Source: Bacillota bacterium
GTDB lineage: Bacteria > Bacillota > Desulfotomaculia > Desulfotomaculales > JAJYZD01
Reading direction: 5' to 3'
Length of the DNA stretch: 32,824 nt
Assembly (NCBI GenBank): GCA_021800315.1
Contig: JAJYZD010000003.1
Coordinates: forward strand, 1-32,824
In this document: in pieces, positions 3,317-25,493 of the stretch
Numbering within the stretch: position 1 is the stretch's first letter
Layout of the letters: each line of letters opens with the position of its first letter
Notes under the pieces: model-generated
The model's input: only the letters and a program-made list of their open reading frames with translations
What the model was told of the DNA's origin: nothing
Databases searched by the model: none
Program-made: the position numbers and the translations under genes

Positions 3317-3327
3317 GGGGAGTAGGT

Positions 3328-3858: not shown

Positions 3859-3879
3859 CCGCGAAGGAGGTTTTTATTC

Positions 3880-5541: not shown

Positions 5542-5554
5542 GGGGGCATAACAC

Positions 5555-5956: not shown

Positions 5957-5967
5957 CGAGCGGGCTT

Positions 5968-6000: not shown

Positions 6001-6020
6001 AGCAGAAGGTGGTGACCGCC

Positions 6021-6941: not shown

Positions 6942-7037
6942 CCCGGACGGAGCATCCTGACGCTCGGGAACCAACCTTGGTTTCCTCATCTGTCGAACCC
7001 AAACCACGTCACGATAACCACCGGAACGGTTCCATGT

Positions 7038-7247: not shown

Positions 7248-7395
7248 AAGCCTACCTTTGGCGATGGTGCCGATAGAGGAATTCCATAAACTGCAGGAAT
7301 CGTCCTGTAAGGATATGGGCATAGTAAGCGCATCTAATTTCCGGCCGGCAGTTCGCGAAAAACGCGAATCACAGCAGGTGAGGTGGAAAATATCC

Positions 7396-8739: not shown

Positions 8740-8753
8740 GGGAGTGGCTTCTT

Positions 8754-11123: not shown

Positions 11124-11284
11124 AGGCGGGAGCCAACCCGGGGAGACGGTACGGCTGCTGTACGGGAACTCCCGTGGGCCCCCACCCCCATCCAGCATAC
11201 GAAGATAACGCTTGACGGCGCAAAGTTGCTACGGTTCGGCTGTCGGCAGAGGTTCATACGGGCATCCCATCGGAATCCACAAGG

Positions 11285-13336
11285 TCAGATCAGTCCGGCC
11301 ACTACCTGCATCAGGTCTAAAACGGGGATGTCGCTGGGATGACCCGGCTGCGTCCGGGCTAAATGCAGGCGTTCGAAGCAGGCCGGGCAGTCGATCAGTA
11401 GTTCATCGACACCCAGTTTGTCGGCGTCCAACATTACATTATTCGCCATATCAATGGACATTGGGGGATGGGCCCGCCTGATGCCGCCCCCGGCACCACA
11501 ACATTTCGCAAACCGGCCATGGTCAGGCATTTCCACCAACTCCAGACCGTGAACGTACTCCAGTACCTGCCGGGGCGGACGGATGACTTCGCGCGATCCC
11601 CGGGCCAGGTTGCACGGATCGTGGTAGGTCACCTTGCGCCTGTATTCCCGGGTGAGGACCAGCCTGCCTTGCGCCAGAGCCGGGGCCACCACCTCCGTAG
11701 TATGCACCACCTCGAACGCCAACTCCCGGCCAAGAAATACCGGCCAGTTGGGAACAATCATGTTCAGGCAACACGGGCAGGAGGTGACGAGACGCCGGAC
11801 TCCCCGCTTTTCCAAAGCCTCCACATTATGACGTACCAACTCTTCCACCAATTGATGCTCGCCGACGATCCACAGCGGGAAACCGCAGCACCACTCATCG
11901 TCCAAAATGGTAAACTCCACGCCTGCCGCCTGCAGGACCTTCACCGCTCCCGCCACCATCGGCCGGGCGGCGTAGGCTCCGGAGCAGCCCGCAAAAAAGG
12001 CCGTCCGGGCCTGCCTAAGCACCTTCACTTCCGGCGGAATAAAGGCCAGCCGGTCAGCATGCGGTTGGCCGTAGGGATTATTGGTCTGAAAGATGATGGT
12101 CCGTAAATCACGCTGCGGGCCCACGGGCCCACTTTCCAACTCAACCATCTTGTGCCGCAGCGCCGGCCACAGCCGCAGGCAATTGACGCCCACCGGACAG
12201 TGTTCCCCGCATACACCGCAAACGGTACATCGGTAAAGGGCGTCGGTGAGCCGGTCTATCTTACCTTTATCCAGGGACCGCTCCCCCCGAAGAAGGGCCC
12301 CCGCGCCGCGCTGAGACGCCAACAGGCCCTTGAAGAGGCTGATCTTCTCCGGTGGTGATATTTCCGGGGTGCCGCCGGCTTCCTGCACCGGGCAAAATTC
12401 GAGGCATTGTCCGCAGCGGGTGCAGGCATCAAGGGAAGCCAGGTTTAAAGTAGACAGCCCTTCCCATAGTTTTATCTGTCCCTTTCCGGTCCTGGAGGCC
12501 GGGAGCAGTTCCACCGCCGAGGCCGTTTTCCCGGCGCGGCTGTGGTCCAGCGACCCGGCATCCGTGGTCAGCGGCGCCACATATATATGGAACAACTTGG
12601 AGAACGGAATGTACGCGATCGTGCAAAGAGCCAGAAAAACGTGGAAAAACCACAAGTACTGATGCCATTCGCCGGCCGAGGCCGGGCCGGCCGTCAGGAA
12701 CAGCCGCCCGGCCCATGCTCCCGGCGTAGGCCAAAAAAGCTCGGGGGTAGCCGGACCCTGGGCAGCCATACGGCTGCCCTCGACCAGAAAACCCGTTCCC
12801 CCCACAAGGAAGAAAGTCAGCAGAATCCCCAGGTCTTCCGCCGCATTCACCCGCCGCCGGGCGGGCGTTAGGAAAAGGCGCCGCACCAGCATGCCCAGAA
12901 TCCCGAGGACAAAGGCCGCACCGGCCCAGTTCACGACCAGCTTATAGACATAAAAGACTTCCCCATGCAAAAAGGCCAGCCCGAAATCATGGCTGACCGC
13001 CAAAAGCAGGCTGGCGGTCAAAAGCAAAAGGAAGCCCCAAATCACCAGTATAAGGGCTATCCCCCGGAAAACGCTGTAGCGAAAAACGCGACGGGCTAAA
13101 AGGCAGTCCGCGGAGAAAAAACGGGAAAGGGACCAGACGACAAACCGCCAGCCTCTTCTACCACCGAAATCACCGGCGGCCGGCCTTCCGGACTGAAACC
13201 ATAACGAAACCCGTAGCCATACGCCCCAGGCTAATACCGCGAGCGCGAGGGCGGCAGCCAGGTAAAAAGCAACAATCACCGGACCTGAGACGCCGTAAAA
13301 GACCGGCCGGGCATAAGATGGTGCTAGGGGTTGCAA
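11285..13336 (-). CDS. Membrane-anchored heterodisulfide reductase-like fusion (NarI/HdrE-like membrane domain + 2x4Fe-4S + 2 CCG domains)
   Basis: Multiple TM helices with His residues (SHD, WHQ, FHV, YIPFSKLFH). Fe-S motifs CTRCGQCLEFCP and CTVCGVCGEHCP. CCG domains FAGC...WCCG...SCPCC and YHDPC...KCCGAGGG...DCPAC. Start is TTG 13336 after AAGGTG, or TTG 13354. Confidence 0.88.
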   Translation of the reverse strand: MQPLAPSYARPVFYGVSGPVIVAFYLAAALALAVLAWGVWLRVSLWFQSGRPAAGDFGGRRGWRFVVWSLSRFFSADCLLARRVFRYSVFRGIALILVIWGFLLLLTASLLLAVSHDFGLAFLHGEVFYVYKLVVNWAGAAFVLGILGMLVRRLFLTPARRRVNAAEDLGILLTFFLVGGTGFLVEGSRMAAQGPATPELFWPTPGAWAGRLFLTAGPASAGEWHQYLWFFHVFLALCTIAYIPFSKLFHIYVAPLTTDAGSLDHSRAGKTASAVELLPASRTGKGQIKLWEGLSTLNLASLDACTRCGQCLEFCPVQEAGGTPEISPPEKISLFKGLLASQRGAGALLRGERSLDKGKIDRLTDALYRCTVCGVCGEHCPVGVNCLRLWPALRHKMVELESGPVGPQRDLRTIIFQTNNPYGQPHADRLAFIPPEVKVLRQARTAFFAGCSGAYAARPMVAGAVKVLQAAGVEFTILDDEWCCGFPLWIVGEHQLVEELVRHNVEALEKRGVRRLVTSCPCCLNMIVPNWPVFLGRELAFEVVHTTEVVAPALAQGRLVLTREYRRKVTYHDPCNLARGSREVIRPPRQVLEYVHGLELVEMPDHGRFAKCCGAGGGIRRAHPPMSIDMANNVMLDADKLGVDELLIDCPACFERLHLARTQPGHPSDIPVLDLMQVVAGLI

Positions 13337-13432
13337 GTTTTCACCTTTTTTCAATCGCTGATTTTTTCCAACACGTACCTGAAAATACCCCTGCCCCTGT
13401 CACTTAACCCACGCCCCTGCCAGGTGCCGACT

Positions 13433-14215
13433 TTAAAGCGCCATACTCCCCGCTCGTCGCGGACCCTGCCCCGGCGGCGGGTCTTCCCGCGCAAACGGCC
13501 GCCTGGTTATCTTCCCGGTGTAGGGGCAAGCCAAAATACAAAGACCGCAAATGGCGCGTCCCGTCTTTTCCCGGTTCGCGGTCAAACGACCGGTACAGGC
13601 CTGCACGTCTATCTGCCCGGCCGGACCGGCGCTGGACCATTCCCGGTCCGGTATGGCCTGCACCGGGCAGCCGTCGACGCAGCGACGACACTTGCCGCAC
13701 CGTCCGGACCACAGCGGGGATTGGCAGACCGCGAGGGGGGCGTTGGTCAAAACGGTGGCCAAACTCAGGAGTGGTCCGTAGCGCTCGTTGATCAGCAGCC
13801 CGCTCTTCCCGACCCAGCCCAACCCGGCGCAGGTCGCCGCGGTTTTATGGGGGAAAAGAGGATAGATCCGGGCTATGAAGCGGGAATCCCGCCGTAGGGA
13901 ATCCGGGGGTATAGCCAGGGTCCTCCATCCCCGGCTCTTCAAATAGCGGACCAGCCAGCCCTGGACCCGTTCCAGCCGCTGGTCGACGTCCGCCATTTGA
14001 TTACAGTAAGCCGTTACGCCGCCGGAAGAAACCACGTTCCCGCCGCCGGAAGGATGGGCAACCGCCAGGGACACGGCTTTATCCAAATGCCGCAATTCCC
14101 CGGCCAGACCGCGGCTGACATCGCCATACCCTACCAGGGTGACCCCCAGGGACACCAACCGGTCGCTCAAATCCCGCTGCCAGTCCACGGGCATGACTTC
14201 GCCAGCCACTGTCAT
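13433..14215 (-). CDS. QueG/reductive-dehalogenase-like cobalamin and 4Fe-4S dicluster protein (short form)
   Basis: HKTAATCAGLGWVGKSGLLI...YGP....TVLT, then CGKCRRCVDGCP...C...CGLCILACP. Confidence 0.8.
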   Translation of the reverse strand: MTVAGEVMPVDWQRDLSDRLVSLGVTLVGYGDVSRGLAGELRHLDKAVSLAVAHPSGGGNVVSSGGVTAYCNQMADVDQRLERVQGWLVRYLKSRGWRTLAIPPDSLRRDSRFIARIYPLFPHKTAATCAGLGWVGKSGLLINERYGPLLSLATVLTNAPLAVCQSPLWSGRCGKCRRCVDGCPVQAIPDREWSSAGPAGQIDVQACTGRLTANREKTGRAICGLCILACPYTGKITRRPFAREDPPPGQGPRRAGSMAL

Positions 14216-14262
14216 CCGTCCCCTTTTACGGTTTTTCCGGCGGCTTTCCTCCGCCGGATCGC

Positions 14263-15315
14263 CTAAAGCGCTTTCCGGGCCCAGTTCGACGCCCCGTATT
14301 GTCTAACCGTATCCACCATAGTCCGGAGATTGGCCAGGGGAGCCGTCGGCCAGATATCACAGGATGGCCAGAGGGCGTCCACCCCCCCTGCCAGGCTGGC
14401 CAGCACCGCGGCCTCAACATCCTCCGGCCGGCCGTTCACCAGGATGTTATAGGCATCGATATTGCCGAACAGCAATGGTTCACGGCCGATTTTCTCCCTG
14501 GTCTTTTTCAGGTCGTTCTTAGGCTCCACGCTCAGCGCGTCCGCTCCGCATTCATTCATCAGGTCGATCACCAGGTTGGTATCCCCGCAAATGTGCAGGA
14601 TCCGGGGTGATGCCATCGCCTTAAAGATCCGGACCAGGTGCGGTTTAATCACCTGCCGGAAGCTGCGCGGACTGAGGATGTCCGCGGTCGCCCCCATTTC
14701 CCGGATGGTGATGTAGTCGGCGCCGGCTGCCCGGTAGGCCGCCGCCATGGTGATGATGACCCCGGAGAGGGTTTCCAGGAGGGCGTTGACCTTGGCCGGG
14801 CTCCGGGCGGTCAGCTTGAAGAGGTCGTTCAAGTCCATCAACTGTCCGGCCAGGGTGTACGGTCCAAGCAACCAACTGCCGACCGGGACCGTTGCCCCGA
14901 CATCCTTCTTCAGCAATCCGATGGCTTCCATTACCAGCGGAAAGCGGCCCCGCTCCGGGAGGTCGGCGGGAACCGTCACCTTTTCCATGTCTTCCGGCGA
15001 GTGAACTATTTTCGCCTTGATCGTCGGGTAGAGCACCTGGCCGACATCTTCGTAGGCATTCATGACGCAGCCCAGCGCCTCGGCTTCAACGCACATATCG
15101 AAAGGGACCACCGCGCACTCGTAGCCAAACAGGCGGTACGAACTGGCGGCCGCGTTGGCCATTTGCACCGGATCACCGTGGATGGCCGCGAACTTGTACC
15201 CATACTCGGCCAGACCGGCTGTAGTAACGTTTCCCATCCCGCTGTAACAGGCGATCCGATCGGTTTTCCGCCCGGCGAACAAGCCCAGCACCCTGTCCCT
15301 GCTGGAGACGCTCAT
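14263..15315 (-). CDS. MtaA/CmuA-family methylcobamide:thiol methyltransferase (UroD fold)
   Basis: VPFDMCVEAEALG, GPYTLAGQL, and Zn motif LHICG...PSCDI. GGAGG RBS. Confidence 0.9.
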   Translation of the reverse strand: MSVSSRDRVLGLFAGRKTDRIACYSGMGNVTTAGLAEYGYKFAAIHGDPVQMANAAASSYRLFGYECAVVPFDMCVEAEALGCVMNAYEDVGQVLYPTIKAKIVHSPEDMEKVTVPADLPERGRFPLVMEAIGLLKKDVGATVPVGSWLLGPYTLAGQLMDLNDLFKLTARSPAKVNALLETLSGVIITMAAAYRAAGADYITIREMGATADILSPRSFRQVIKPHLVRIFKAMASPRILHICGDTNLVIDLMNECGADALSVEPKNDLKKTREKIGREPLLFGNIDAYNILVNGRPEDVEAAVLASLAGGVDALWPSCDIWPTAPLANLRTMVDTVRQYGASNWARKAL

Positions 15316-15338
15316 GAAAACATCCTCCTTGTAGTCAA

Positions 15339-16298
15339 CTAATTTGTCGCTGCCGCCGGCGGCTCTTCCAACCGGGCCGCAAAATCGGGGAAGAATCTAC
15401 GGACGGGGTGGCCGGGGCCGGCCGGCAGCACTCCCGTTTCCCCGCCGGCCAGGGTCGTCAGCAGCATACTCGCCGTAGCCACCGCGGGCAGTATTTTCGG
15501 CAGGTTTATAATGGGACCGGTAAAAAGGAGATCGGTCCACAGGAAAGCGGCAACGGCCTGCCCGGCGGCGTTCATGGCGTTGAAACCCTCGGCGCCCCAC
15601 ATTTCGCGAGCCTCTTTCCACATGTAGGTGCCGTTCGAGGAAGCGACGCCCGCCGGCCAACCGAACTCCTCCTTCATCAACCGGCAGGCGAGGCAGGAAA
15701 AAGCCGTGGAAGGAAGGTTCATCGTAGCCGCATCCACCAGGATACTGGCAAAATCATCCTCCCCGATTATCTCCAGCATCTTGCGCAGTCCGCTCACTCT
15801 GCCCGCGGCTGTCTGATCCTCCTGGTTGAAGGCCTGCACCACGACGTGCCTGACGCCCAGTTCCTTCAGACGGGCTACCTGGCCCGCTATATCCTTGTCC
15901 CACGGCGTGATGCTGTTGTACAGCAGCCGGTCATGCACACCCAGCCCGGCTGCGTAGGCCGCCGCCTCCAGACGGGTCTTCTCCACCCATACGTCGATGC
16001 CGAAAGGCTGTTCCGAGACGCCGAGGAAAAAATCAATATAGGTTTTCATCTCGTCCAGCGAATTGGCCACCAATGCCACCAGGGCCCCAACGCCAGTTTG
16101 GGCGGACAACTCTTCCTGCCGCAGGATGTAATCCCGGGCCTTGACCCGGTCAAACTTCCTTTCCTTCCTGCTTTCCAGAATTCTGTCCCCGTTGTGGAAC
16201 ATCGACGAAACAACCAGCGGCGGATTTTCCCCGGGCTGCCCGCCGACCGCCCACGGACCGATGCGGCAAACCCTTTGCTCCCGGTTCAACTTAAACAC
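15339..16298 (-). CDS. MtrH/MtgA-like methylcorrinoid:tetrahydrofolate(pterin) methyltransferase
   Basis: Start GTG 16298 overlaps the upstream stop (GTGTTTAA). MFKLNREQRVCRIG...VGGQPGENP...RLLYNSI matches the MtrH-family N-terminus. Confidence 0.85.
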   Translation of the reverse strand: MFKLNREQRVCRIGPWAVGGQPGENPPLVVSSMFHNGDRILESRKERKFDRVKARDYILRQEELSAQTGVGALVALVANSLDEMKTYIDFFLGVSEQPFGIDVWVEKTRLEAAAYAAGLGVHDRLLYNSITPWDKDIAGQVARLKELGVRHVVVQAFNQEDQTAAGRVSGLRKMLEIIGEDDFASILVDAATMNLPSTAFSCLACRLMKEEFGWPAGVASSNGTYMWKEAREMWGAEGFNAMNAAGQAVAAFLWTDLLFTGPIINLPKILPAVATASMLLTTLAGGETGVLPAGPGHPVRRFFPDFAARLEEPPAAATN

Positions 16299-18276
16299 GT
16301 ACCGAGACCCCCTTTTCTTGCCACTTCGGTATCCTGTCCAAAACAGCCTGGATGTGGGGAAACCCGTCCCCGGCATGCGGAAAGGCCATCGCCGCGGCAA
16401 ACCTTTCCTGGAAGTCCGGCTCGACCGCCGTCTCGACAAACTCGACCGTTCCCGCAATCCGGACGGCCTCGCGGCGCTTCTCCACGTCGAACAGGGCCAG
16501 CCTGGCACCGTCACCGGCCGCGTTGCCCACGGGCATGACGTCCTCCAGGTCGCAGTCGGGAATCATCCCGATAACCATGGCGCTCTCCTTGTCGATATAG
16601 CTGCCGAAGGCGCCGGCCAGCGTAACACTGTTCACGGCGTCCACGCCCAGCTTTTCCATCAGGTAGCGCGCTCCCACGTACAAGGCGGCCTTGGCCAGTT
16701 GCACCGCCCGGACATCGCCCTGGGTGAAGGTGATATCGCGGCCGATGGATGTCTCCTGCGCCCACGCCAGCACGAATTCCGATTTCCCGTCCTCCCCCTT
16801 GCGTAGCCGGGGGGAAGCGATTTTCAGGTTGAAGCGGCCGCTTTTTTCCACGATCCCGCTCTTGAACAACTCAGCCATGACATCAATGATTCCGGAGCCG
16901 CAGAGTCCTTTGGCCTGCGGGTTGTTTACCCCGGGGTACCAGCCGTCCAGTCCGATCACTTTGTAGGAAACAGCCAGGGTTTCGGGATTGATACGCACCT
17001 TTTCGATGGCTCCCGGCGAGGCCCGCATACCGAACTTGATCTGGGCCCCCTCCAGGGCCGGGCCGGTCGCACAGGACGTACACAGAAGCCGCCGGGCGTT
17101 GCCGATGTCGATTTCACCGTTGGTGCCGATGTCGATGATCATGCGGATTTTTTCCGGTTCCTTGTATGGTTCTTCCGCTATAAGTACGCCTACGTTATCC
17201 GGCCCGACGAAGCCCGCTTCGACCGGCAGGGAATGCACGTTGGCGCCCCGGCACACCTTTATTCCCAGGTCCCGGGCCTTGATGTCCAGCGCGTTTTTGG
17301 TAGCCGCGGTAAACGGGGAGCGGCCCAGAAACCGTGGTTCGATGCCCAGGGCGATGTGCTGCATGGCCGTGTTGAATACCAGGGTTACCTCCAGGATATC
17401 ATCCGCCGTAAGGCCGGCCTTCCCCGCCAGGCGCCCGGCCAGGGTGTTCAGACCCTCGATGATGGCTCCGCGCATTTTCGCCAGGCCGTCGTCGTTCATC
17501 ATACCGTAGGTTATGCGGGAAAGCACGTCTTCGCCGTAGCGCACCTGCGGGTTCATCATGGAGTCGACGGCGAGCACCTGCCCGTTACGCAGGTCGCACA
17601 GGTAGGCGGCCACGGTGGTGGTGCCGATGTCCACGGCCAACCCCACGCAGTGCTCCACCAGACCGGGTTCCACCAGGATTATTTCCCGGCTGTTCCATAC
17701 GGTTACCGTAACCTTCCAGTCCCCTTCGCGGACGACGTCCGGCAGACAGGTCAATACCGAATAGTCCACGGCCAGGTCTTCCGGTACACCGTACTTGGCG
17801 GCCAGGGTCCGCCTGATCCGCTCGGCGTCACCGCGGTGATCATCCAGCGTGGCCGGCGTCATTTCAATGTAATACTTCCGGACGGCCGGGTTCAGGTTGA
17901 ACACGCGTTCCTTGCCGGTCTCCAGCACCACCTGCCTGGCTCCCCTGCTTTCCTCCGGCACGAAAACCAGGACGTCTCCCCGTACCGCGGCGCAGCAGGC
18001 CAGACGGTATCCTCCGGCCAGCTCTTCCTCCGTCAAAAATTCCCCTTCATCCCCGGCCAGGGGTGAAAGGTTCTCCATGCGCGAGTCGATACCGAATTTC
18101 TCGAAAAAACCCTCTTCAATCTTCACCTTGCACTTGCCGCATACCCGGGAGCCGCCGCAAACACTCTCGATATCCACGCCCAACTGCCGGGCCGCTTCCA
18201 AAACGGTAACCCCTTCCGGTACCTGGCCACGCCGGCCGGATGGCTGAAAAATCAAGGTCACTGAGGTCGATCCCAT
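16291..18276 (-). CDS. RACo/RamA-like ATP-dependent reductive activator of corrinoid proteins (2Fe-2S + ASKHA, DUF4445)
   Basis: CGGSRVCGKC...RLACC, AVDIGTTTV, NPQVRYGEDVLSRI, IDIGTNGEI, SCATGPALEG, GLCGSG, QLAKAA, LAGAFG, GNAAGDGA. Confidence 0.93.
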   Translation of the reverse strand: MGSTSVTLIFQPSGRRGQVPEGVTVLEAARQLGVDIESVCGGSRVCGKCKVKIEEGFFEKFGIDSRMENLSPLAGDEGEFLTEEELAGGYRLACCAAVRGDVLVFVPEESRGARQVVLETGKERVFNLNPAVRKYYIEMTPATLDDHRGDAERIRRTLAAKYGVPEDLAVDYSVLTCLPDVVREGDWKVTVTVWNSREIILVEPGLVEHCVGLAVDIGTTTVAAYLCDLRNGQVLAVDSMMNPQVRYGEDVLSRITYGMMNDDGLAKMRGAIIEGLNTLAGRLAGKAGLTADDILEVTLVFNTAMQHIALGIEPRFLGRSPFTAATKNALDIKARDLGIKVCRGANVHSLPVEAGFVGPDNVGVLIAEEPYKEPEKIRMIIDIGTNGEIDIGNARRLLCTSCATGPALEGAQIKFGMRASPGAIEKVRINPETLAVSYKVIGLDGWYPGVNNPQAKGLCGSGIIDVMAELFKSGIVEKSGRFNLKIASPRLRKGEDGKSEFVLAWAQETSIGRDITFTQGDVRAVQLAKAALYVGARYLMEKLGVDAVNSVTLAGAFGSYIDKESAMVIGMIPDCDLEDVMPVGNAAGDGARLALFDVEKRREAVRIAGTVEFVETAVEPDFQERFAAAMAFPHAGDGFPHIQAVLDRIPKWQEKGVSVRV

Positions 18277-18430
18277 ATTCCTTCTCCCCTTTGCGCTTGT
18301 GTGGACCCGGACAGACCGGCGGACGGCCTGGTGCCTTGTACATGTTGTTAACCCACAATGCTCAGCTGCTAAAGGATCCGCCGTGAACAGCCGACCACGC
18401 CGCCCAGTCGGAGGCAGCCGCCGGACTGCC

Positions 18431-19090
18431 TTAAAGCCCGCGCAGCGAACTGATCATGTTGATGGCGTCGCGCAAGGCGTTGGTGGCATCCTTGGCATAA
18501 CCGTCGGCGCCCCAGCGCTCGGCGATTTCCTCGTTGACGGGAGCGCCGCCGATCATGATTTTGGCTTTCGGATTCTTGGCCTTGATCACTTTAATGATGT
18601 CCTTCATCCCCACCATCGTTGTCGTCATCATAGCGGACAGGGCCACGATCTCGGAGTCTGTTTTCAGTTGTTCCTCGACGAACTTCTCGAGCGGTACGTC
18701 GCGGCCCAGGTCGTGCACGACGAAGCCGGCCGCATCAAACATCAGCTTTACAATATTTTTGCCGATATCATGCACGTCCCCCTGTACCACCCCCATGACA
18801 ACCTGGCCCTTCGGCTTCGAATTTTCCTTCGAAATCAACGGACGCAGAATATCCAGTCCGGCGTACAGTGCATCAGCGCACATCAACAGTTCCGGCACGA
18901 AATATTCCTGAATTTCGTAGAGACGGCCTACTTCCTGCATGCCGACCACCAGGCCGTCGAAAATGGCCTCGTGCGGTTCCATCCCTTCCCTGACGGATTC
19001 ATTCGCCGCATCGCGGGCCGCATCCTCATCGTAGTTAACTACGGCGTCGCCGAGTTTCTTCAACAGTTCCTGTTTTCTTTCCGGTGTCAT
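18431..19090 (-). CDS. Methyltransferase corrinoid protein (MtaC/MttC/MtbC family)
   Basis: Cap domain GL..GM..VG.LYE..EYFVPELL, then VQGDVHDIGKNIV (DxHxxG), DLGRDVP, LSAMMTTT, MIGGAPV, GADGYA. Confidence 0.95.
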   Translation of the reverse strand: MTPERKQELLKKLGDAVVNYDEDAARDAANESVREGMEPHEAIFDGLVVGMQEVGRLYEIQEYFVPELLMCADALYAGLDILRPLISKENSKPKGQVVMGVVQGDVHDIGKNIVKLMFDAAGFVVHDLGRDVPLEKFVEEQLKTDSEIVALSAMMTTTMVGMKDIIKVIKAKNPKAKIMIGGAPVNEEIAERWGADGYAKDATNALRDAINMISSLRGL

Positions 19091-19153
19091 AAGCTCGTAC
19101 TCCCTTCCAATATTGTTGCTTCGTTCCCCGGAGACCTGCGGGCAGGCTGCGCC

Positions 19154-20410
19154 TTAGGACGACTGCGCCACGACCGCCCCGCCGCCCGCCTGTTCTTCAC
19201 AAAAGTCCGCCAGTTGCCGCTTCGGCTCCCCGGCAATCAGGACGCCGGCGATGCTCAGCAGGAACATCAGGCTGCCCAGGCGGAAGGCCACGGGGATGGA
19301 ATAGTATTTGATCAGGATTCCCGCCACCAGGGGCGCAAAGAGAGCACCGACCCTCCCCACGGTCAAGGAGAAAGATGTCGCCGTACCACGCATCTCGGTC
19401 GGGAAGGACTCTCCGCAATACAGGATCCCGTTCACCCAGGGCCCCTGGTAGATACCGAAAACCAGGAAACCGAGAACTATCAGCAGCGGCAATGAATCCA
19501 CCCGCCGGGAAGTGAAGAAGTACATGGCCACGGCACCCGCCACGGCGGTCAGGATAGTGGCGTTTCTCCGGCCCAGGCGGTCGCCCAGCCAGCCCGAGCC
19601 GACCACGAAGACTATGGCAAGCAGGTAGATGAGGGCCATGGCGCCCGTCATCCGCCCGGGGGACAGGTGGCCTTTCTGCATCAGGTACAACGGCAGGTAA
19701 ACGGAGTAGGACCAGTAAGTGTATTCGGTCCCGATCCAGGCTATGGTGGTGCCGATTAAGGCACGGCGGGAACTTTTGCCCGCGAAAAGCTGCCTGATGG
19801 TAGTTTTTCTTTTTTCGCCGGCAAATCGCTGTTGGACCGTCTGAAAGCGGGGTGTTTCGACCAGGAACTGCCTGACGAACACGATAAGCAAACCGGGGAG
19901 CAGGCACAGAAGGAAGGCATAACGCCAGCCTTCGGCCACGTTGAGGAACAGTCCGAAAAACCCCACGGCTGCCAACGAACCCAGGCTGTAGAAGCTGTAA
20001 AACATCCCGAAACCGCGGCCGCGGCTCTTCTCCGGCCAGGTTTCCGCCAGATAGGTCGTGGCCACCGGCAGTTCCATCCCGCCGCCTAGTCCGGTGAGCG
20101 CCCGGGCGATTCCCAGCATGGCCGGGGAAGACGCCAGTCCGGTCAGCGCCGTGGTCACGGTGTAACCGAGGATGGATATGCCCAGTCCTTTCTTTCTGCC
20201 GATGTAATCAGACATCAAGCCGCCGGCGAAGGTTCCGCCGGCATAGCCCACCAGGAAAATCGTGGCGATGAGCCCGATGGTCGTGGTGGAGGCATGCAGG
20301 CTTTCCTCTATCTTCGGCACGCTCACGGCATAGAGGTTGATCACCAGGGCGTCGAAGAACCAGCCGGCCCCCGCGATCAGCAGCACAAAAACACCCAGCC
20401 CGGCGATCAC
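19154..20410 (-). CDS. MFS transporter (organic acid/metabolite:H+ symporter-like); start uncertain
   Basis: About 12 hydrophobic segments, with SDYIGRK, YLAETWP..SRG, ETPRF, GDRLGRR, ESFPTEMRGT. Confidence 0.9.
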   Translation of the reverse strand: MIAGLGVFVLLIAGAGWFFDALVINLYAVSVPKIEESLHASTTTIGLIATIFLVGYAGGTFAGGLMSDYIGRKKGLGISILGYTVTTALTGLASSPAMLGIARALTGLGGGMELPVATTYLAETWPEKSRGRGFGMFYSFYSLGSLAAVGFFGLFLNVAEGWRYAFLLCLLPGLLIVFVRQFLVETPRFQTVQQRFAGEKRKTTIRQLFAGKSSRRALIGTTIAWIGTEYTYWSYSVYLPLYLMQKGHLSPGRMTGAMALIYLLAIVFVVGSGWLGDRLGRRNATILTAVAGAVAMYFFTSRRVDSLPLLIVLGFLVFGIYQGPWVNGILYCGESFPTEMRGTATSFSLTVGRVGALFAPLVAGILIKYYSIPVAFRLGSLMFLLSIAGVLIAGEPKRQLADFCEEQAGGGAVVAQSS

Positions 20411-20482
20411 CGGGCCGTTGCCTGTCCGGCCGCCCGTTTCCGCCTTCCTCAGATTGTCTACGATCTTTCACCTCGCCTGATG

Positions 20483-21499
20483 TCAATGCTCATCCGTTAC
20501 GGACAGAAAAGCTTCGATGTTTCGCCAAGGGGTGGCCGGGGCCAGGTCGCAACCCGGCATCAATACGAAACCCCGGTGCTCACGCAACTCCGCCAGCGCC
20601 CTCTGTACGCCGGCTCGGATTTCGGACGGCCCCGCCCCGTAGAGCAGCAACGGATCGATATTCCCGCCCATGCCCAGACCCGCCAAACCGTCGCGGGCCA
20701 GCGCCAGGCTCACCAGGCTGTCGAAACTGAACGCCGAAAGCCCCCGGATACGGGCGACCGCCTGGAGCCTGTCCGCGGTACGCCCGCAGATGTGCAAAAG
20801 ACCGGCCCGTTCTCCACCGCCGGTAAGCGAACTGAAGAGTTCACTCAACGGTTCCGCCACGAATTCGGCGAACATCCTGGGCGAAATCAGGTCGCCCGAA
20901 GCCAGTGGCTCGGCCAGGTAGACGATATCAACGCTGTCCAGCACCGGCCGGTAAAACTCCAGGACCGCCTCCTGCGCCATGGCGGTGAAGGAGCGGAGCA
21001 GGCCGGGATTACCCAGGCACAGCCGCAACAACGCCTGCGGTCCGAACACCTGGCCGGCCACGGTAAAAGGTCCCCAGGACACCATCGTGACGGGGAATTG
21101 ATCCCCCAGACGGTCCGCCACGCGCCGGGTGGCTTCCTGAACCGTCTCCACCGTACGGCTTTGCGCCAGCTCCTTCACCCGGCACCGGATGGACGGATCG
21201 ACCGGCAGGATCCGGGCCGGCACGGGCGGAGACGGGTCGGGCCAAACCAGTTCGGTACGGGCCAGCGCAGCCGGCAGGGCGTTGTTGAACCCGCCCCCGA
21301 CGAAGACTATGCCCCGGCCCAGCCGCCTTGCCGTGCTGACAATGGCGCCGGCCAGCCGAACGGGGTCAAGGGCCGCTTCCCGGAAGCCGATCCCGTTCTG
21401 GACCATGGTCCAGGCGCCCCCGCCCAGCAGGCTGACCGGCAATTGCGCCGGTGTTTGACCCCGCAGGGCCGCCAGGATATCCGCCTTGGAACCGCTCAC
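20483..21499 (-). CDS. UroD/MtaA-family methyltransferase-like protein
   Basis: WGPFTVAGQ, EPLASGDLISP, LHICG, GGNIDP, LMPGCDL...TP..NI. Confidence 0.88.
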   Translation of the reverse strand: MSGSKADILAALRGQTPAQLPVSLLGGGAWTMVQNGIGFREAALDPVRLAGAIVSTARRLGRGIVFVGGGFNNALPAALARTELVWPDPSPPVPARILPVDPSIRCRVKELAQSRTVETVQEATRRVADRLGDQFPVTMVSWGPFTVAGQVFGPQALLRLCLGNPGLLRSFTAMAQEAVLEFYRPVLDSVDIVYLAEPLASGDLISPRMFAEFVAEPLSELFSSLTGGGERAGLLHICGRTADRLQAVARIRGLSAFSFDSLVSLALARDGLAGLGMGGNIDPLLLYGAGPSEIRAGVQRALAELREHRGFVLMPGCDLAPATPWRNIEAFLSVTDEH

Positions 21500-21523
21500 G
21501 TCCGCCGCCTGCCGTCCATCCGT

Positions 21524-22555
21524 CTAACCCGGCGGCGTAGCGGCGGCCGTCCGCAAAAGCGCCTCTACATTCTCCCGCGGAACCGTGGGCCCGATATCGC
21601 AGCCGGGCATCAGGATGAAGCCGCCGCCCCCACCCAGCCTCTGGATGACGTCCCGCGCCTTTTGGGCTACTTGCTCCGGACCGGCCTGCAACATCACGGC
21701 CACCGGGTCGAGATTACCGGCCAGGCATCTTTTGCCGCGGAAGGCTTCCCGCGCCTTGACGAGGTCAACCTTGTGGTCGACGCTGATGATATCCGCCCCG
21801 GTCTCCAGCAGAAGATCCAGCCTGTCCGTGGTGTCGCCGCAGATGTGCAGCAGGGTTTTGACCTTCTTTTGGTGCCATCGGTCCGTCAGTTGGCGCAGGG
21901 AAGGCAGAACGAACTCGGCGAACTGTTTCCGGGAAAGCAGGTCGCCCGACGCCGTGGGATCGGCGATGGAAACCATTTCGATTAGGCCGCGCGAAATCAA
22001 CGGTTCGTAGAAACCGGTGATGAACTCCCGCGCAAAGTCGACCACGGCGTGCACCATTTCCCTGGCCTTGAACGTGCCCCGCATCAACGGTTCCACCCCG
22101 CAGATCTGGCCCGCCAGGGTGAATGGTCCCCAGGAGGTAGTGGTCACGACAAACCGGTCGCCGATGCGTCCGGACACAATTTCGGTGGTTTTCCAGACCG
22201 TTTGGATCGTTTCGTGCCCGGCCATTCTCCCTGTATCCAGGGCCCGCACCCCGGCCAGATCGTGAACCAGGGCTTCTTCCAGGTCCGGAGCACCGATCTT
22301 GCGGTACTTGATCGTCCCGCCCAACGCCGCCACATGGAGGTTGTTGTAGCCGGAGCCGCAGTAGACCATGGGATTGCCCACTTCCTCGGCCATCCGGACG
22401 AATACGCCGGCCATGCGCCGGGGATCCCGGGCCAGGGACTCAAACGTCTCCCCCGCCTGATAGAGGGTCCACATGCCCCCCCCGTAGTAGGCGGCCGGGA
22501 CCCGTTCGGTATCCTGCAAGTCGACGGCCGCCAGGATCGCTTCTTTTCCGGTCAT
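21524..22555 (-). CDS. UroD/MtaA-family methyltransferase-like protein
   Basis: WGPFTLAGQ, DPTASGDLLS, LHICGD, AGNLDP, LMPGCDI...P.ENV. Confidence 0.9.
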   Translation of the reverse strand: MTGKEAILAAVDLQDTERVPAAYYGGGMWTLYQAGETFESLARDPRRMAGVFVRMAEEVGNPMVYCGSGYNNLHVAALGGTIKYRKIGAPDLEEALVHDLAGVRALDTGRMAGHETIQTVWKTTEIVSGRIGDRFVVTTTSWGPFTLAGQICGVEPLMRGTFKAREMVHAVVDFAREFITGFYEPLISRGLIEMVSIADPTASGDLLSRKQFAEFVLPSLRQLTDRWHQKKVKTLLHICGDTTDRLDLLLETGADIISVDHKVDLVKAREAFRGKRCLAGNLDPVAVMLQAGPEQVAQKARDVIQRLGGGGGFILMPGCDIGPTVPRENVEALLRTAAATPPG

Positions 22556-22599
22556 ACTATCCCCCTGTTCCTGTCAGCGCTGGCCGTGGGAACCCCTTT

Positions 22600-23049
22600 T
22601 CAGCCGATGCCCTTGTCGAAGCGGGGCGGCGGCAGGTACTCCCACGGTTCGCCTTTACGGTAGTGGTCGGCGATGTCCATCACCTTGGCCGCATATTCAA
22701 ACGCATAGGGGATGCCGGGACCGCCGGGCACGAAACCGGCGCCGATCATACCCACCGCTGCGGCCTCGAAAATCTCCTGGTCGGTGGCTCCGGCCTCAAT
22801 GGCGGGAACCACGTGAATTATGCAGCGCGGCGACAGGTACGAAACACCGATGGCCGTAAAGATCAGTTCCTTGACTTTCCGGCTCAGCGCTCCGTCGGCC
22901 CAGATGGAATTGTAGAAGTCGGCGAAAGTGCGGCCCGATTCCGGGTTCACCTGGTTGATAACTCCAAACATCCGGGGAATGAAACCCATTGTTTCCTTCA
23001 TGTACTTGTTTACTTCCTCGGCTGTCATCCGGCCTTTCTCTTCACTCAC
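22600..23049 (-). CDS. Carboxymuconolactone decarboxylase/AhpD-like protein
   Basis: GALSRKVKELI...SPRCIIH...AIEAGATDQEIFEA; GGAGG RBS. Confidence 0.85.
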   Translation of the reverse strand: MSEEKGRMTAEEVNKYMKETMGFIPRMFGVINQVNPESGRTFADFYNSIWADGALSRKVKELIFTAIGVSYLSPRCIIHVVPAIEAGATDQEIFEAAAVGMIGAGFVPGGPGIPYAFEYAAKVMDIADHYRKGEPWEYLPPPRFDKGIG

Positions 23050-23131
23050 GACTATCCCTCCACCTTAAATTTTGTTCCCAACGGGTTCAGGCGCCCAAAC
23101 GGTGCCCGCGGGTCTTCCGGTACCCGGTGTC

Positions 23132-23662
23132 CTACACGAAGGACCGGTTAACGAGTTCACCCACCAGCCTGACCTCCCGGGAAAGGGTGGTACCGACCGG
23201 CGACGTCTTCCAGACCCTGCCGTGCAACTCCTCCATTCTGGACCGCGGCGCGTCGGTTTTAAGAAAAACCCTCGCCCGGATCTCGGTGAAACCGGGCAGT
23301 TCCGACTGGTCCGCCTCGGGCGCCAGGCCCAAAAAGCCCGGCAGATCAATGTTGCCTTCCAGTTCGATCTCCAGCTTCTGCACATTGATACCCATAACGG
23401 CGGCATTCATGGCGTAACCGATACACAGGCAGGAGCCGTAGGATGCCAGGACCATTTCCACCGGGTTGGGTGCCGTGTTGGTGCCGCCAAGGTCAGGCGG
23501 TTCGTCCATGGCCAGCGTAAACCCACGGATATTGCTCTCCACCGCGAAGCCGCCACGCCAGCACGACCGTGCCCGCCACAAGGTTCTCCCCAGATCGGGA
23601 TTTTCTTTTACGGCCTGGACGATCTGTCCAAGCTTTTCGGGATCAAGACCGTTGATGACCAT
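23132..23662 (-). CDS. OsmC/Ohr-family protein
   Basis: Start ATG 23662 after AAGGGAGGG. Motifs INGLD, DEPPDLGGTNTAPNPVE.VLA..GSC, LEIELEGNIDL.GFLG, TSPV. Confidence 0.88.
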   Translation of the reverse strand: MVINGLDPEKLGQIVQAVKENPDLGRTLWRARSCWRGGFAVESNIRGFTLAMDEPPDLGGTNTAPNPVEMVLASYGSCLCIGYAMNAAVMGINVQKLEIELEGNIDLPGFLGLAPEADQSELPGFTEIRARVFLKTDAPRSRMEELHGRVWKTSPVGTTLSREVRLVGELVNRSFV

Positions 23663-23955
23663 AGTTCGTACCCTCCCTTGCAAACTCCCCGGCCCCCCTG
23701 TCCGGAGGCCCGTTACCCTAGACTGCCCAAGACAACCGGCAGCGCTTGCCGGGCCCCGGTTGAACGGCTCCCGTATTCCCCTTCCCTGATCCCGGCGGGT
23801 TTTTCAAGACATCGCCTTTTGCTCTCCGGCCGCAGTCCTGACAGTGTGCCCCGATGGATCCTTGTGCAATTGTGTACTTTGATTATTCTAATACTAAATT
23901 ACGCTATAAAAAAATACCCCCTCGTTGAAAACTTCATTCCCCAACAACCGGAGTC

Positions 23956-23967
23956 AATGTATACATT
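23956..23967. promoter_or_regulatory. Palindromic operator overlapping the -10/+1 region (GntR-like GTATAC core)
   Basis: Perfect palindrome AATGTATACATT. Confidence 0.55.
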
Positions 23968-23993
23968 ATATGCCCTTTTTCGCTGCCTGTCAA
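23965..23993 (-). promoter_or_regulatory. Consensus sigmaA promoter of the methyltransferase operon
   Basis: Minus strand reads TTGACA-GGCAGCGAAAAAGGGCA (17 nt)-TATAAT. Confidence 0.85.
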
Positions 23994-24467
23994 CACGATG
24001 ATCCTGAACAGCCGGAAACCGGGACTGCTTTGTCATAATCACAGGTCGGCCCGCATTTATTGCCGGGACGATTGACCGTTTTTCCGCTACCGCTTGAAAC
24101 AGTGAATGGTTGTATTTAACCGCAGTAATCTTGCAATTTGTCCCAGACCGGAGAGATTCCGGCCCAGGTTCAAATTCCTGCAGCTTAATTGGCTGGATGT
24201 CGCTAACCGTCGTCTGACCCTCAACCGGAAGCCACCTGTATTACCACACAAAGGAAACAGCCAGGGGATCGTCCGGCGCTTCGGCTATTGCCGGCCCGGC
24301 CCACGACCCGGCGGGGCCGCTGCATCCCGCGCCCGCAAGGACGGAGATCAGCGGCCCCTTATCCGGAAACTGCAGGCCCGACCGCGAACCGTTAACGCCA
24401 TCCGGTTGTTTGGCCGAACCAGCGCCTGGTGCCCGTCCAATTCGCCACACTTTCCCGGGCGAACTTG

Positions 24468-25493
24468 TCAGCGCGTCGTTGCCCCACTTCCTCCGAAGTT
24501 CCGCACCGTCTCCACCATGGTTTTCAGGTTGGCCGGACCGGTACCCGGAGGCACGCCGCAACCAGGCATCAGGATGAAGTTTGCCGGTCCGCCTGCCAAG
24601 ATACAGGCGTTGGTTTCGGATTCCACCGCCACCCGGTCCCCCTGCAGGAGGGTACGGACCGGATCCACATTGCCGGCCAGTACCACCGCCGGGCCCACAC
24701 TACTTCTGGCGTCTTTGAGGCTCACCTTCTGGTCGAGGCTCAAAGCGTCGGCGCCGGTATCCCGCATCTCGGGCCAGATCTTTTCCGTGGAACCGCAAAT
24801 ATGCAGAATGACCCGGCCGCCCAGGCTGTGCACGTGCTCCACCAGCGAGGTGATGAAGGGGAAGGCGAAAGACCTGCTGTGCCGGGCGGCCAGCATGTCG
24901 GCCGATACAAAGGGTTCCGGCAGGTAAAATATCCTTGCCCCACAGCGGTAGGCTTCTTCCGCCAGGCTCTTTAAGATCCCGGTTATTTCCCTGATAATAT
25001 CCTCCAGCCGGGAAGGATTCAGGAAAATTTGCCTGAGCATCCTTTCGGCTTCGAAAACCCGCATCGCGGTAGTAAAGGGGCCTTCGAAGAGCACGCCCAG
25101 AGCCTGCCCCGCCGGTTGGCGCAGGATTGACAGCGCCTCCATCATGGCGTTGACCGAGGCTGTATTCTCCCAGGAGACGTTGCCGAATCCCTTAAAGTCA
25201 TTCAGGTCGAAGACCGTATCACCGACCGGGCCGAACGGCGACATCTTCACCTTCACCCCCATTGCTTCGGGAACAGCCATGGCGTCGGCGTATACGACCG
25301 TCCAGTCCATGCCGGTCCGGGCTTGAAACTCACCCTGTATCCGGGCCATCAGGGATCCGTCGGACCGCATTGCCGAAAGCGTACAACCGGCCATGAAGGC
25401 GGCCTGGGCCGCCCCTGTAATGATTACCGGAATACCGGAGGGTTGATGAGCCCATAAATTGGCCAGATTACCGGTGAGCGTCGCTTCAACCAC
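24468..25493 (-). CDS. UroD/MtaA-family methyltransferase-like protein (divergent fourth paralogue)
   Basis: Likely start GTG 25493 after AAGGAG (the track ORF extends to 25802). Motifs PEAMG, EGPFTTA, LHICGS, LAGNVDP, LMPGCGVPPGT..ANL. Confidence 0.85.
   Translation of the reverse strand: MVEATLTGNLANLWAHQPSGIPVIITGAAQAAFMAGCTLSAMRSDGSLMARIQGEFQARTGMDWTVVYADAMAVPEAMGVKVKMSPFGPVGDTVFDLNDFKGFGNVSWENTASVNAMMEALSILRQPAGQALGVLFEGPFTTAMRVFEAERMLRQIFLNPSRLEDIIREITGILKSLAEEAYRCGARIFYLPEPFVSADMLAARHSRSFAFPFITSLVEHVHSLGGRVILHICGSTEKIWPEMRDTGADALSLDQKVSLKDARSSVGPAVVLAGNVDPVRTLLQGDRVAVESETNACILAGGPANFILMPGCGVPPGTGPANLKTMVETVRNFGGSGATTR

Follow-up and report, generated by a model that had tools for sequence, protein, structure and literature searches.

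The stretch analysed here, called the window throughout, is the entire 32,824-base contig JAJYZD010000003.1 (contig C51 of genome G000) of a Bacillota metagenome-assembled genome (MAG; GCA_021800315.1) of 3.48 Mb. Its minus strand carries a run of eleven co-oriented genes for an OsmC-like protein, a CMD/AhpD-like protein (CMD), two URO-D paralogues (UroD_a and UroD_b), an MFS transporter, a corrinoid protein (CoP), the activase RACo, an MtrH-like protein, a third, MtaA-like URO-D paralogue, a QueG-like iron-sulfur protein and a membrane protein resembling heterodisulfide reductase (Hdr). We put the probability at about one in two that these genes are the form taken in Bacillota by a widespread module in which a corrinoid serves to transfer methyl groups between sulfur (thiol or thioether) compounds and the folate/methanopterin one-carbon (C1) pool. 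The best reading, from sequence comparison, is a putative methyl transfer from a methylated thiol of the coenzyme M (CoM) type to folate, with disulfide cycling of the Hdr type. The gene set itself is a real, strongly conserved module found across phyla and not a chance neighbourhood. A prediction made earlier from the letters of the window (the original prediction) had proposed a corrinoid system for an imported S-methyl compound, with thiol cycling by the Hdr-like protein. The conserved module, the thiol-type URO-D proteins and the recurrent Hdr were borne out by our analysis; the importer is not a conserved part, and no CoM synthesis genes were found in the window's own genome.

UroD_a has more than 1,200 database homologues, one of which, 48% identical and on a 3.72-Mb contig, bears the source name Metallumcola ferriviriculae, and 278 relatives in a collection of one genome per species, from which we surveyed the best 80 loci (46-63% identity, at most 10 kb of flank per side, many ending at contig ends). 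Searching these 80 loci with the window proteins by tblastn, we found CMD in 62, the MtaA-like protein in 59, the CoP in 56, MtrH in 55, RACo in 49, the QueG-like protein in 42, the HdrD-like protein in 30, OsmC in 20 and the MFS transporter in one; an all-against-all clustering of the open reading frames (ORFs) of the 80 loci, which is independent of tblastn, agrees with this picture. Full flanks, meaning 5 kb or more upstream and 10.5 kb or more downstream, are available for 32 loci; of these, 31 have the CoP, 29 RACo, 27 CMD, 25 MtrH, 25 the CCHC protein DUF6951, 24 the QueG-like protein, 23 HdrD and 13 OsmC. About 55 of the 80 loci belong to Nitrospirota/Thermodesulfovibrionia (two of them unlabelled), 12 to Archaea (Hydrothermarchaeota and the Archaeoglobi Geoglobus and Ferroglobus), nine to Chloroflexota and two each to Bacillota and Nitrospinota. 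The set thus recurs in loci of Nitrospirota, Nitrospinota, Chloroflexota, Bacillota, Hydrothermarchaeota and Archaeoglobi, so the possibility, named with the original prediction, that it is not conserved does not apply. The UroD_a orthologue was found in 38 of 201 Nitrospirota genomes, about one fifth of this evenly drawn sample. The conserved synteny that had been anticipated holds for OsmC, CMD, one UroD, the CoP, RACo, MtrH, MtaA, the QueG-like protein and Hdr and fails for MFS, UroD_b and a fourth URO-D paralogue upstream of the operon (UroD_up).

The usual gene order in Nitrospirota starts with [sensor kinase, sigma-54 regulator], [DsrE-OsmC, divergent], CobW and a receiver-like protein of 132 aa, continues with UroD_a, CMD, MtrH, MtaA-like, CoP, QueG-like, RACo, DUF6951 and (FolD), and ends with separate HdrE-like and HdrD-like genes and a PALP enzyme. 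DsrE, DUF6951, CobW, FolD and MTHFR recur in the loci of other lineages. CobW/COG0523-type GTPases stand beside 20 of the 80 loci (for example L011:1643-2731 and 11355-12386, and L032:8183-9100) and also occur on contig C304 of G000, a recurrence that fits zinc or cobalt delivery to methyltransferases. The locus of one Nitrospinota MAG (L023) has the variant QueG-like-UroD_a-MtaA-CoP-RACo, with neither MtrH nor CMD, and is followed at L023:11178-12783 by an AhpC/TSA peroxiredoxin and a formylmethanofuran:tetrahydromethanopterin formyltransferase (Ftr), which suggests a methanopterin-linked C1 route in Nitrospinota.

Closer to the window, the picture is that of a smaller core. Among 41 genomes of the same order, four have close QueG-like homologues (51-62% identity), and their regions of 17-30 kb contain the core CoP-RACo-MtrH-MtaA-QueG-like at 49-81% identity. 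In these four regions the Hdr-like, MFS, CMD and OsmC proteins have no match scoring more than 60 bits, and UroD_a and UroD_b have weak matches alone (23-30% identity). A second such core, CoP-RACo-MtrH-MtaA, lies in the genome of the window itself at C304:1497-6352 (72-83% identity), with CobW-like genes nearby. On the same contig, at 12556-13539, a further URO-D paralogue lacks the His-Cys-Cys triad described below and has an in-frame TGA within the match, so that the gene encodes a selenoprotein or else is broken. UroD_b has no counterpart in the 80 loci save a second copy in one of them (L054), and UroD_up does not cluster with any of their ORFs. MFS, UroD_b and UroD_up are therefore additions of the window's lineage and not conserved parts, and with the MFS transporter present in one of 80 loci, the imported, charged S-methyl compound proposed in the original prediction is an idea that the window alone speaks for.

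A link of the module to CoM comes from the end of the Nitrospirota operon. Its PALP gene is a cysteate synthase, with 462 bits where the TIGR03844 cut-off is 324.9, and the next gene encodes a sulfopyruvate decarboxylase in fused form, ComDE, whose alpha and beta parts score 177.7 bits (cut-off 147.95) and 210.7 bits (cut-off 221.5), respectively. The two correspond to the pair MA3297-MA3298 of the Methanosarcina CoM pathway, as given in the available part of PMC12068725. Among the 80 genomes, cysteate synthase scores over the cut-off in 61 and has a match at E≤1e-60 in 63, and ComD is over its cut-off in 63; a comparison of coordinates by eye puts ComD at most 1 kb from cysteate synthase, on one contig, in all 63 genomes with a match. 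In the Nitrospirota sample, 33 of the 38 UroD_a carriers and none of the 163 other genomes have cysteate synthase, figures that do not amount to a statistical test because the relatives are not independent, and in 24 of the 33 it lies 9-12 kb from UroD_a on one contig. In Nitrospirota, cysteate synthase behaves as a part of the module. Present within the operon or close to it in 63 of the 80 genomes, these genes strengthen the analogy to the CoM/heterodisulfide system of methanogens that the original prediction had drawn, and they occur without the methane-forming enzyme: neither the 80 genomes nor that of the window gave a match to McrA. Among the 80, no cysteate synthase was detected in three Nitrospirota genomes, in two of the three Archaeoglobi MAGs, the third having a match below the cut-off, and in one other archaeal MAG.

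Two further observations concern genes near this pair or resembling a part of it. At L102:5057-6013 on the minus strand (G045:C17:153056-154012), just beyond ComDE and on the opposite strand to it, lies a gene for a protein of the SsuA family, which binds aliphatic sulfonates (98 bits, below the cut-off of 163.5). The Chloroflexota MAG of locus L022 (G086), which has no cysteate synthase, encodes at C42:11342-12390 adjoining ComD-like (148.5 bits, just passing) and ComE-like (155 bits, below the cut-off) proteins; this pair could belong to another route to sulfoacetaldehyde or be a phosphonopyruvate decarboxylase.

The second line of evidence is the predicted zinc site of the URO-D paralogues. 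For proteins of the type of METHYLTRANSFERASES, the best solved relative of all four window paralogues is Methanosarcina MtaA (4AY7), with E-values of 4.4e-50 for the MtaA-like protein, 1.9e-22 for UroD_a and 1.8e-19 and 3.7e-19 for the other two. In the HMMER alignment, the LHICG and PGC motifs of UroD_a fall on the same motifs of 4AY7, giving the triad His237-Cys239-Cys319. When the sequences are aligned jointly, all four window paralogues show the His-Cys-Cys triad, as do 81 of 81 UroD_a rows, 54 of 55 MtaA-like rows and 26 of 26 methanogen MtaA rows, and neither of the two HemE rows does. We take the aligned residues to be the zinc ligands of MtaA. The available part of Kountz & Balskus (10.1101/2023.07.31.551370) describes His-Cys-Cys as the mark of sulfur/selenium methyltransferases, with O-demethylases replacing one or both cysteines by carboxylates or by nothing. 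CdmB (9RUI), a zinc-free haloalkane MT1 grouped with the O-demethylases, was matched by UroD_a alone among the four, and weakly (7.5e-7). The zinc ligands and the nearest relatives support an assignment of the paralogues to a putative thiol type rather than to an O-demethylase or halomethane type. The remark in the original prediction that no O-demethylase MT1 is present was a misreading: OdmB, VdmB, MtoB and MtvB are themselves URO-D-family proteins in the parts of the published accounts available to us, and membership of the family is therefore no argument against an O-demethylase.

All four paralogues belong to the URO-D family PF01208 with its TIM-barrel fold (E-values in the table). Curated models and a quick tree place them differently. 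The MtaA-like protein passes one CoM-methyltransferase model (see table) and stays below others (TIGR01463, 212.7 against 235.4; MtaA_Meth, 239 against 400), and UroD_a (185.8), UroD_b (103.4) and UroD_up (132.8) are over no curated CoM-methyltransferase cut-off. We built a quick maximum-likelihood tree with IQ-TREE from 84 rows, comprising 26 archaeal MtaA that pass NF040654, HemE and selected rows of the UroD_a and MtaA-like orthogroups. The 16 rows of the MtaA-like orthogroup group together with support 100 and fall inside a clade with 99% support, along with all methanogen MtaA rows and other MtaA-like rows from methanogens. UroD_a lies outside this methanogen CoM-methyltransferase clade with UroD_b (36% identity to UroD_a) as its long-branch sister (support 100), and UroD_up also lies outside, on a long branch without close relatives. 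UroD_a is a distinct orthogroup of predicted zinc methyltransferases of the MtaA family.

The redox proteins form the third part of the module. The Hdr-like fusion has 689 residues with two CxxCxxCxxxC motifs (at 311 and 376) and two complete CCG motifs (457-529 and 581-659), which is the combination of two [4Fe-4S] clusters and two CCG motifs (CX_nCCX_nCXXC) that defines HdrD. Its membrane part (PF02665, 31 bits, residues 140-262) has about five hydrophobic segments and histidines at 122, 130, 231, 238 and 256. The fusion passes no curated equivalog (DsrK, 94.5 against 400; HdrB model, 30.8 against 345), and the separate HdrE-like subunit of Nitrospirota scores 35.6 bits against a DsrM cut-off of 300. 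CMD is the best-conserved member of the module, with 60-76% identity to homologues in other phyla; Cys76 and His79 of its motif SPRC-x-x-H are shared by 64 of 65 rows, with a gap in the other, and there is no CxxC. OsmC has a single invariant Cys85 (ORF numbering) in 24 of 24 aligned homologues, and DsrE of the other lineages' loci retains its usual cysteine. Of the thiol-redox set that had been proposed, the Hdr-like protein is recurrent, while CMD and OsmC have single cysteines and may have the redox role ascribed to them. Weak matches of CMD and OsmC to selenoprotein or arsenic-linked families were considered as a clue to the substrate and rejected, as their scores are far below the cut-offs.

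The QueG-like protein (260 aa, compared with 367-384 aa for QueG chains) scores 53.2 bits against 200 for TIGR00276 and 47.6 against 160 for the RDH model, and each of its eight cluster cysteines is present in at least 40 of 44 rows. Its AlphaFold model (pLDDT 84.9) matches QueG 5d0a in Foldseek (E 1.3e-10; TM-scores of 0.60 and 0.43 when normalised by query and target, respectively), followed by PceA and NpRdhA and weakly by the cobalamin-processing MMACHC. An identity with QueG was rejected: the fold is common to both, but the protein is too short and far below the QueG model. Because it stays with the CoP/RACo/MtaA core in every variant, even in those without Hdr, we suspect a role in cobamide reduction, processing or electron delivery and not in substrate chemistry. 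Behind RACo, 43 of the 80 loci carry DUF6951 (about 105 aa; for example L087:17293-17607), with an invariant set of Cys11, Cys35, His73 and Cys76. In the window's genome DUF6951 genes lie near other corrinoid-protein genes (G000 C216:13635-13949 and C101:2436-2747), and the protein looks like a metal-binding accessory of corrinoid methyltransferase systems.

In the mechanism that we propose, RACo would keep the CoP in the Co(I) state, the two zinc enzymes would load or unload the corrinoid using S-methyl compounds or thiols, and MtrH would connect the corrinoid to methyl-tetrahydrofolate, or to methyl-tetrahydromethanopterin in archaea. The C1 link is seen in MtrH, which is over its NCBIfam cut-off, in FolD and MTHFR of related loci and in Ftr of one Nitrospinota locus. 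In Nitrospirota, Nitrospinota and Hydrothermarchaeota the thiol partner would be CoM or a closely similar thiol derived from sulfoacetaldehyde, and the cysteate synthase and ComDE at the operon end would make it. The Hdr-like protein, with CMD, OsmC and DsrE, may cycle a (hetero)disulfide, persulfide or mixed methyl-disulfide against menaquinone, and in the window's organism the inserted MFS and UroD_b may supply an imported substrate or thiol. The net flow would lead from methanethiol, dimethylsulfide (DMS) or methylthio-acids through the Wood-Ljungdahl methyl branch to CO2, with sulfate as acceptor. We favour this catabolic direction because of the sensor/sigma-54 regulators, the FolD, MTHFR and Ftr neighbours, the sulfate-reducing hosts and the extra paralogue and transporter of the window. 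As a speculative rationale for Hdr, methanethiol and a carrier thiol might be oxidised to a mixed disulfide with quinone as acceptor, providing a better leaving group or a pull.

There is a substantial chance that the module represents CoM-dependent methyl-sulfur metabolism outside methanogens. A stronger version, which we regard as possible and rather doubtful, is that Nitrospirota, Nitrospinota and Hydrothermarchaeota make CoM and run a methyl-CoM/heterodisulfide cycle without MCR, and that the window's Firmicute uses the same machinery with an imported thiol or substrate. In such a cycle MtrH, the CoP and the MtaA-type enzyme would join methyl-tetrahydrofolate or methyl-tetrahydromethanopterin to CoM, the second zinc methyltransferase and its AhpD-fold partner would act on methanethiol-type compounds, and the quinone-linked HdrED would make or break the CoM mixed disulfide, so that sulfate reducers could use or form methylated sulfur compounds with energy coupling.

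Several observations weigh against methyl transfer from sulfur compounds to folate with Hdr-type cycling. The transfer of a methyl group from a thioether to tetrahydrofolate or tetrahydromethanopterin is uphill by about 30 kJ/mol (the Mtr reaction), and a soluble system alone would therefore run towards thiol methylation; the chemistry of cob(I)alamin with disulfides may also argue against the mixed-disulfide rationale. The core on C304 and in the four same-order relatives stands without Hdr, CMD, OsmC or UroD_a nearby. Cysteate synthase was not found in any of the nine Chloroflexota and two Bacillota among the 80 genomes, and the window's genome, 86% complete, has neither this enzyme nor ComD/E above the cut-offs (best matches 29 bits for cysteate synthase, 37 bits for ComE and none for ComD, with two ComA-family fragments), so CoM is not shown for the window's organism. 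COG1900, the CoM synthase family, was found in two of five genomes checked, one being that of the window, and was not found in three of the four other module genomes, which leaves the last CoM step unaccounted for. The zinc-ligand alignment contains no row of a known O-demethylase as a control; an A. fulgidus mto-type cluster was sought for this use (41-genome sample, Geoglobus MAG relatives) and none was recognised. His-Cys-Cys is also present in five of six further URO-D paralogues of the window's genome, so that the ligand rule does not discriminate inside this genome. The best curated matches of the Hdr-like protein are TfrB (159.8 against 385), LdhH and GlpC, all far below the cut-offs, and CCG proteins also serve dehydrogenases that do not act on disulfides. 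CMD and OsmC, with one invariant cysteine each, have no redox pair, and no RNA run is listed among the sequencing runs that contain the stretch.

The main rival keeps the module and reverses its flow: methyl groups would pass from methyl-tetrahydrofolate through MtrH and the corrinoid to thiols such as CoM, sulfide, methanethiol or another, in a soluble Mtr-like methyl sink or a thiol-methylating route, with the Hdr-like protein keeping the thiol pool reduced. Thermodynamics favour transfer from a methyl-pterin to a thiol, as in Mtr and MetH, the MtaA-like protein passes PRK06252 and groups with enzymes that physiologically methylate CoM, and 63 of the 80 genomes have co-located CoM synthesis genes. 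However, no known consumer of methyl-CoM accompanies the module, no McrA having been found as described above, and the sensor kinase/sigma-54 regulators together with the window's extra paralogues and transporter look like an inducible catabolic operon. We consider this reversal, including the part assigned to Hdr, rather unlikely. A split methionine synthase was set aside as improbable on the grounds that the module is accessory (38 of 201 Nitrospirota genomes) and stands behind sensor-kinase/sigma-54 regulators.

The other rivals change the substrate and are less probable still. In an O-demethylase of the Mto/Odm type for methoxylated aromatic acids, the URO-D proteins would be MT1s, MtrH the MT2, the MFS protein the importer, and the redox proteins would handle catechol or quinone products. 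The architecture MT1(URO-D)-CoP-MFS-MtrH-RACo is the one that published descriptions give for the mto clusters of A. fulgidus and M. shengliensis, the genome has 12 URO-D matches, and the best NCBIfam match of the MFS protein is an aromatic acid/H+ symporter family. That match (148.7 bits) is far below the cut-off of 418.55, though, and the transporter is missing from 79 of the 80 loci. The intact His-Cys-Cys of every paralogue and of 135 of 136 rows of orthologues also differs from the replaced cysteines reported for O-demethylases in the available descriptions, MtaA is the best solved relative and not CdmB of the O-demethylase-related clade, and co-location with cysteate synthase, ComDE and Hdr would be left unexplained, so we find an O-demethylase improbable. 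Equally low odds are given to salvage of methyl-selenium (dimethylselenide or methylselenol), as proposed for type 1 mlp clusters, with CMD and OsmC as relatives of seleno-redox proteins. Clusters of Mlp, CoP and RACE are tied to selenium and ClMlp2 methylates selenide in the available part of Kountz & Balskus (10.1101/2023.07.31.551370), UroD_a lies outside the CoM-methyltransferase clade as is described there for Mlp2, the genome has a SelD with an in-frame TGA, and CMD and OsmC match the (seleno)protein families NF041047 and NF041052, weakly and below cut-off. Yet type 1 clusters, by the same partial account, have no folate methyltransferase, whereas MtrH is present in 55 of the 80 loci, often with FolD or MTHFR; the main text of that preprint, as available, contains no match for MtrH, AhpD, OsmC or Nitrospir-; and the salvage of a trace element would not explain a quinone-linked Hdr and dedicated CoM-type synthesis genes. 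Most improbable of all is the transfer of methyl groups from halomethanes (chloromethane or dichloromethane, in mec-, cmu- or cdm-like systems) or to metalloids (As, Sb or Te) in a mine-drainage habitat. The mec cassette, in the descriptions at hand, also joins an MtaA/CmuA-family protein with MtrH, a corrinoid protein and RACo, the stretch was found in metagenomes of mine drainage, tailings and sediment (three studies), and CMD weakly matches arsenic-gene-linked AhpD domains; but the haloalkane MT1 CdmB is zinc-free, placed with O-demethylases and a weak match only, the arsenic-linked matches reach 24-34 bits against cut-offs of 120-510, and the majority of related loci are labelled as belonging to MAGs from groundwater, hot springs and vents.

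The putative operon itself was delimited from ORFs, Pfam and NCBIfam and spans 11285-23683, with intergenic gaps of at most 154 nt. Every gene named in the original prediction was found in the order given there, and so were the fourth UroD paralogue upstream and the consensus promoter ahead of OsmC. A scan of 10900-26300 returned five promoter-like sites compared with 3.4 ± 1.8 in shuffled sequences, the site ahead of OsmC (23993..23965) being the sole perfect one. UroD_up, upstream of this promoter, is a separate unit outside the conserved module. Rfam at gathering thresholds returned nothing in the window, and there is therefore no riboswitch clue to the ligand. The corrinoid protein scores 202 bits against 215.3 for TIGR02370 and contains the sequence GDVHDIG, presumably the DxHxxG motif of base-off/His-on binding. 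The MtrH-like ORF extends to 16514, with homology beginning near its residue 74, and scores 136.6 against 550 for the MtgA model.

Features of the operon and its surroundings in the window (scores in bits against model cut-offs; E, E-value)
Feature	Positions	Strand	Evidence and remarks
UroD_up (fourth URO-D paralogue)	24468-~25490	minus	URO-D E 1.8e-57; upstream of promoter
Sigma-70-type promoter-like site	23965..23993	minus	TTGACA-17 nt-TATAAT; 12/12 match; ~280 nt upstream of OsmC frame
OsmC-like	23132-23683	minus	PF02566 E 4e-18; NF041052 59.4 against 95, below cut-off
CMD/AhpD-like	22600-23049	minus	PF02627 E 2.1e-9
UroD_a (URO-D paralogue)	21524-22555	minus	URO-D E 1.2e-56
UroD_b (URO-D paralogue)	20483-21499	minus	URO-D E 2.9e-42
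MFS transporter	19154-20410	minus	MFS_1 E 4.2e-61
Corrinoid protein, two domains	18431-19090	minus	B12-binding E 6.8e-26; B12-binding_2 E 3.6e-21
RACo activase	16291-18276	minus	RACo_C_ter E 4.9e-94; Raco_middle; RACo_linker; N-terminal Fer2 ([2Fe-2S])
MtrH-like	15339-~16304	minus	PF02007 E 1e-43; NF002142 331.2 against 287, passes
MtaA-like	14263-15315	minus	URO-D E 1.6e-70; PRK06252 258.9 against 244, passes
QueG/RDH-like Fe-S protein	13433-14215	minus	2x[4Fe-4S]
Hdr-like fusion: NarI-like membrane domain, 2x[4Fe-4S], 2xCCG	11285-13354	minus	CCG E 1.3e-31; Fer4_8; Nitrate_red_gam

The host genome comprises 342 contigs at 61% G+C with 86% completeness and 2.35% contamination. It encodes DsrA (574.7 bits against a cut-off of 392.85) with an adjoining DsrB-like gene, a fragment of acetyl-CoA synthase (ACS) and the 12 URO-D matches mentioned above; on the grounds of DsrA, the ACS fragment and these matches, the host is thus a predicted sulfite/sulfate-reducing Firmicute with many corrinoid methyltransferase systems. 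MttB had no match in the whole genome, a search that was not extended genome-wide to MtaB and MtmB. SelD (393 bits) lies at C312:4591-5505 with one in-frame TGA, suggesting that the organism probably decodes selenocysteine. The stretch is present in nine sequencing runs of DNA.

Elsewhere in the window, positions 7000-11200 form an island of low G+C (46-50% compared with 58-65% elsewhere), which carries genes for a sugar-porter MFS protein (7258-8739) and a GH15 glucodextranase-like protein (8754-11123), convergent with the operon end, and has possibly been acquired recently. Among the upstream neighbours, at 867-6941, are genes for an acyl-CoA dehydrogenase (1841-3316), for the N-terminal domain of the large subunit of methylmalonyl-CoA mutase, another B12 enzyme (3880-5541), and for an MBL-fold hydrolase (5922-6941).

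The enzymology of anaerobic methanethiol and DMS degradation by sulfate reducers has been open since the isolates of the 1990s, and the module is a concrete candidate for it. To our knowledge, CoM is known only from methanogens, alkane-oxidising archaea and bacterial alkene metabolism; dedicated cysteate synthase and ComDE genes within a methyltransferase/Hdr operon of bacteria, in a set of 80 genomes none of which yielded an MCR, would broaden the biology of CoM and bear on the idea that methanogenesis began with methyl transfer. If the MCR-free CoM cycle were true, it would give CoM a third biological role and would be an extant relative of that half of methylotrophic methanogenesis in which methyl groups are transferred. 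UroD_a together with the SPRCxxH CMD protein may serve as a genomic marker in surveys of aquifers, vents and mine waters. The module is present in about a fifth of the sampled Nitrospirota and in several other subsurface lineages. The finding is more general than the window suggests.

Full-text literature searches, with most subscription journals outside their scope, returned no description of the gene set or of cysteate synthase/ComDE in Nitrospirota, and the module is apparently undescribed so far. The closest parallel in content is found in Methanosarcina, where, in the systems MtsA/MtsB and MtpC/MtpA, zinc MtaA-family enzymes act on S-methyl compounds and CoM via a corrinoid protein and where the heterodisulfide reductase HdrDE combines cytochrome b with CCG domains. 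The Mtp cluster also includes an MFS transporter, MtpP (10.1101/548461, available part), and CoM is made through cysteate synthase and ComDE (PMC12068725, available part), whose genes occur in the related genomes and were not found in that of the window. In contrast to Methanosarcina, the module has no MCR, carries the MtrH-type pterin methyltransferase inside the operon, uses a RACo-type [2Fe-2S] activase in place of RamA and adds CMD, OsmC, the QueG-fold protein and DUF6951, and it is found in bacteria and in archaea that are not methanogens. The type 1 mlp clusters (10.1101/2023.07.31.551370) share several His-Cys-Cys MtaA-like proteins, a CoP, RACE/RACo, anaerobic hosts and a proposed sulfur/selenium-methyl metabolism, according to the part of the preprint available. 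The absence of a folate methyltransferase is a trait that its authors give for these clusters, whereas MtrH belongs to the module in the window as in most surveyed loci, and the main text, as available, mentions heterodisulfide reductase in the introduction only. The placement of the MtaA-like protein and UroD_a in our tree matches what is written there of Mlp3/Mlp1 and Mlp2, a comparison by description only.

Systems of the Mto/Odm/Vdm/Mtv type, as far as their descriptions were accessible, also combine a URO-D-family MT1, a corrinoid protein, an MtrH/pterin MT2, a RACo-type activase and often an MFS protein, but the module differs from them by the thiol-type zinc triad, by CoM methyltransferases as nearest relatives and by the Hdr-like, CMD and OsmC proteins and, elsewhere, the CoM synthesis genes. 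The dichloromethane mec and chloromethane cdmBCA/cmuAB systems share, in the accounts available, an MtaA/CmuA-family protein, MtrH or another MT2, a corrinoid protein and RACo. The module lacks the sensor PocR kinase and the MecJ-type antiporter of mec, and for the mec, cdm and cmu systems these accounts report no thiol or CCG proteins and describe CdmB-type MT1s as zinc-free and O-demethylase-related. The Hdr-like protein resembles DsrMK, HdrDE and HmeCD in joining a NarI-like membrane subunit, putatively of the di-haem type, to a cytoplasmic protein with two [4Fe-4S] clusters and two CCG domains, but in the window it is one fused polypeptide and its genomic partner is a methyltransferase operon and not DsrAB/DsrC. 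Taken by its components, the module is classed among the corrinoid three-component methyltransferase systems.

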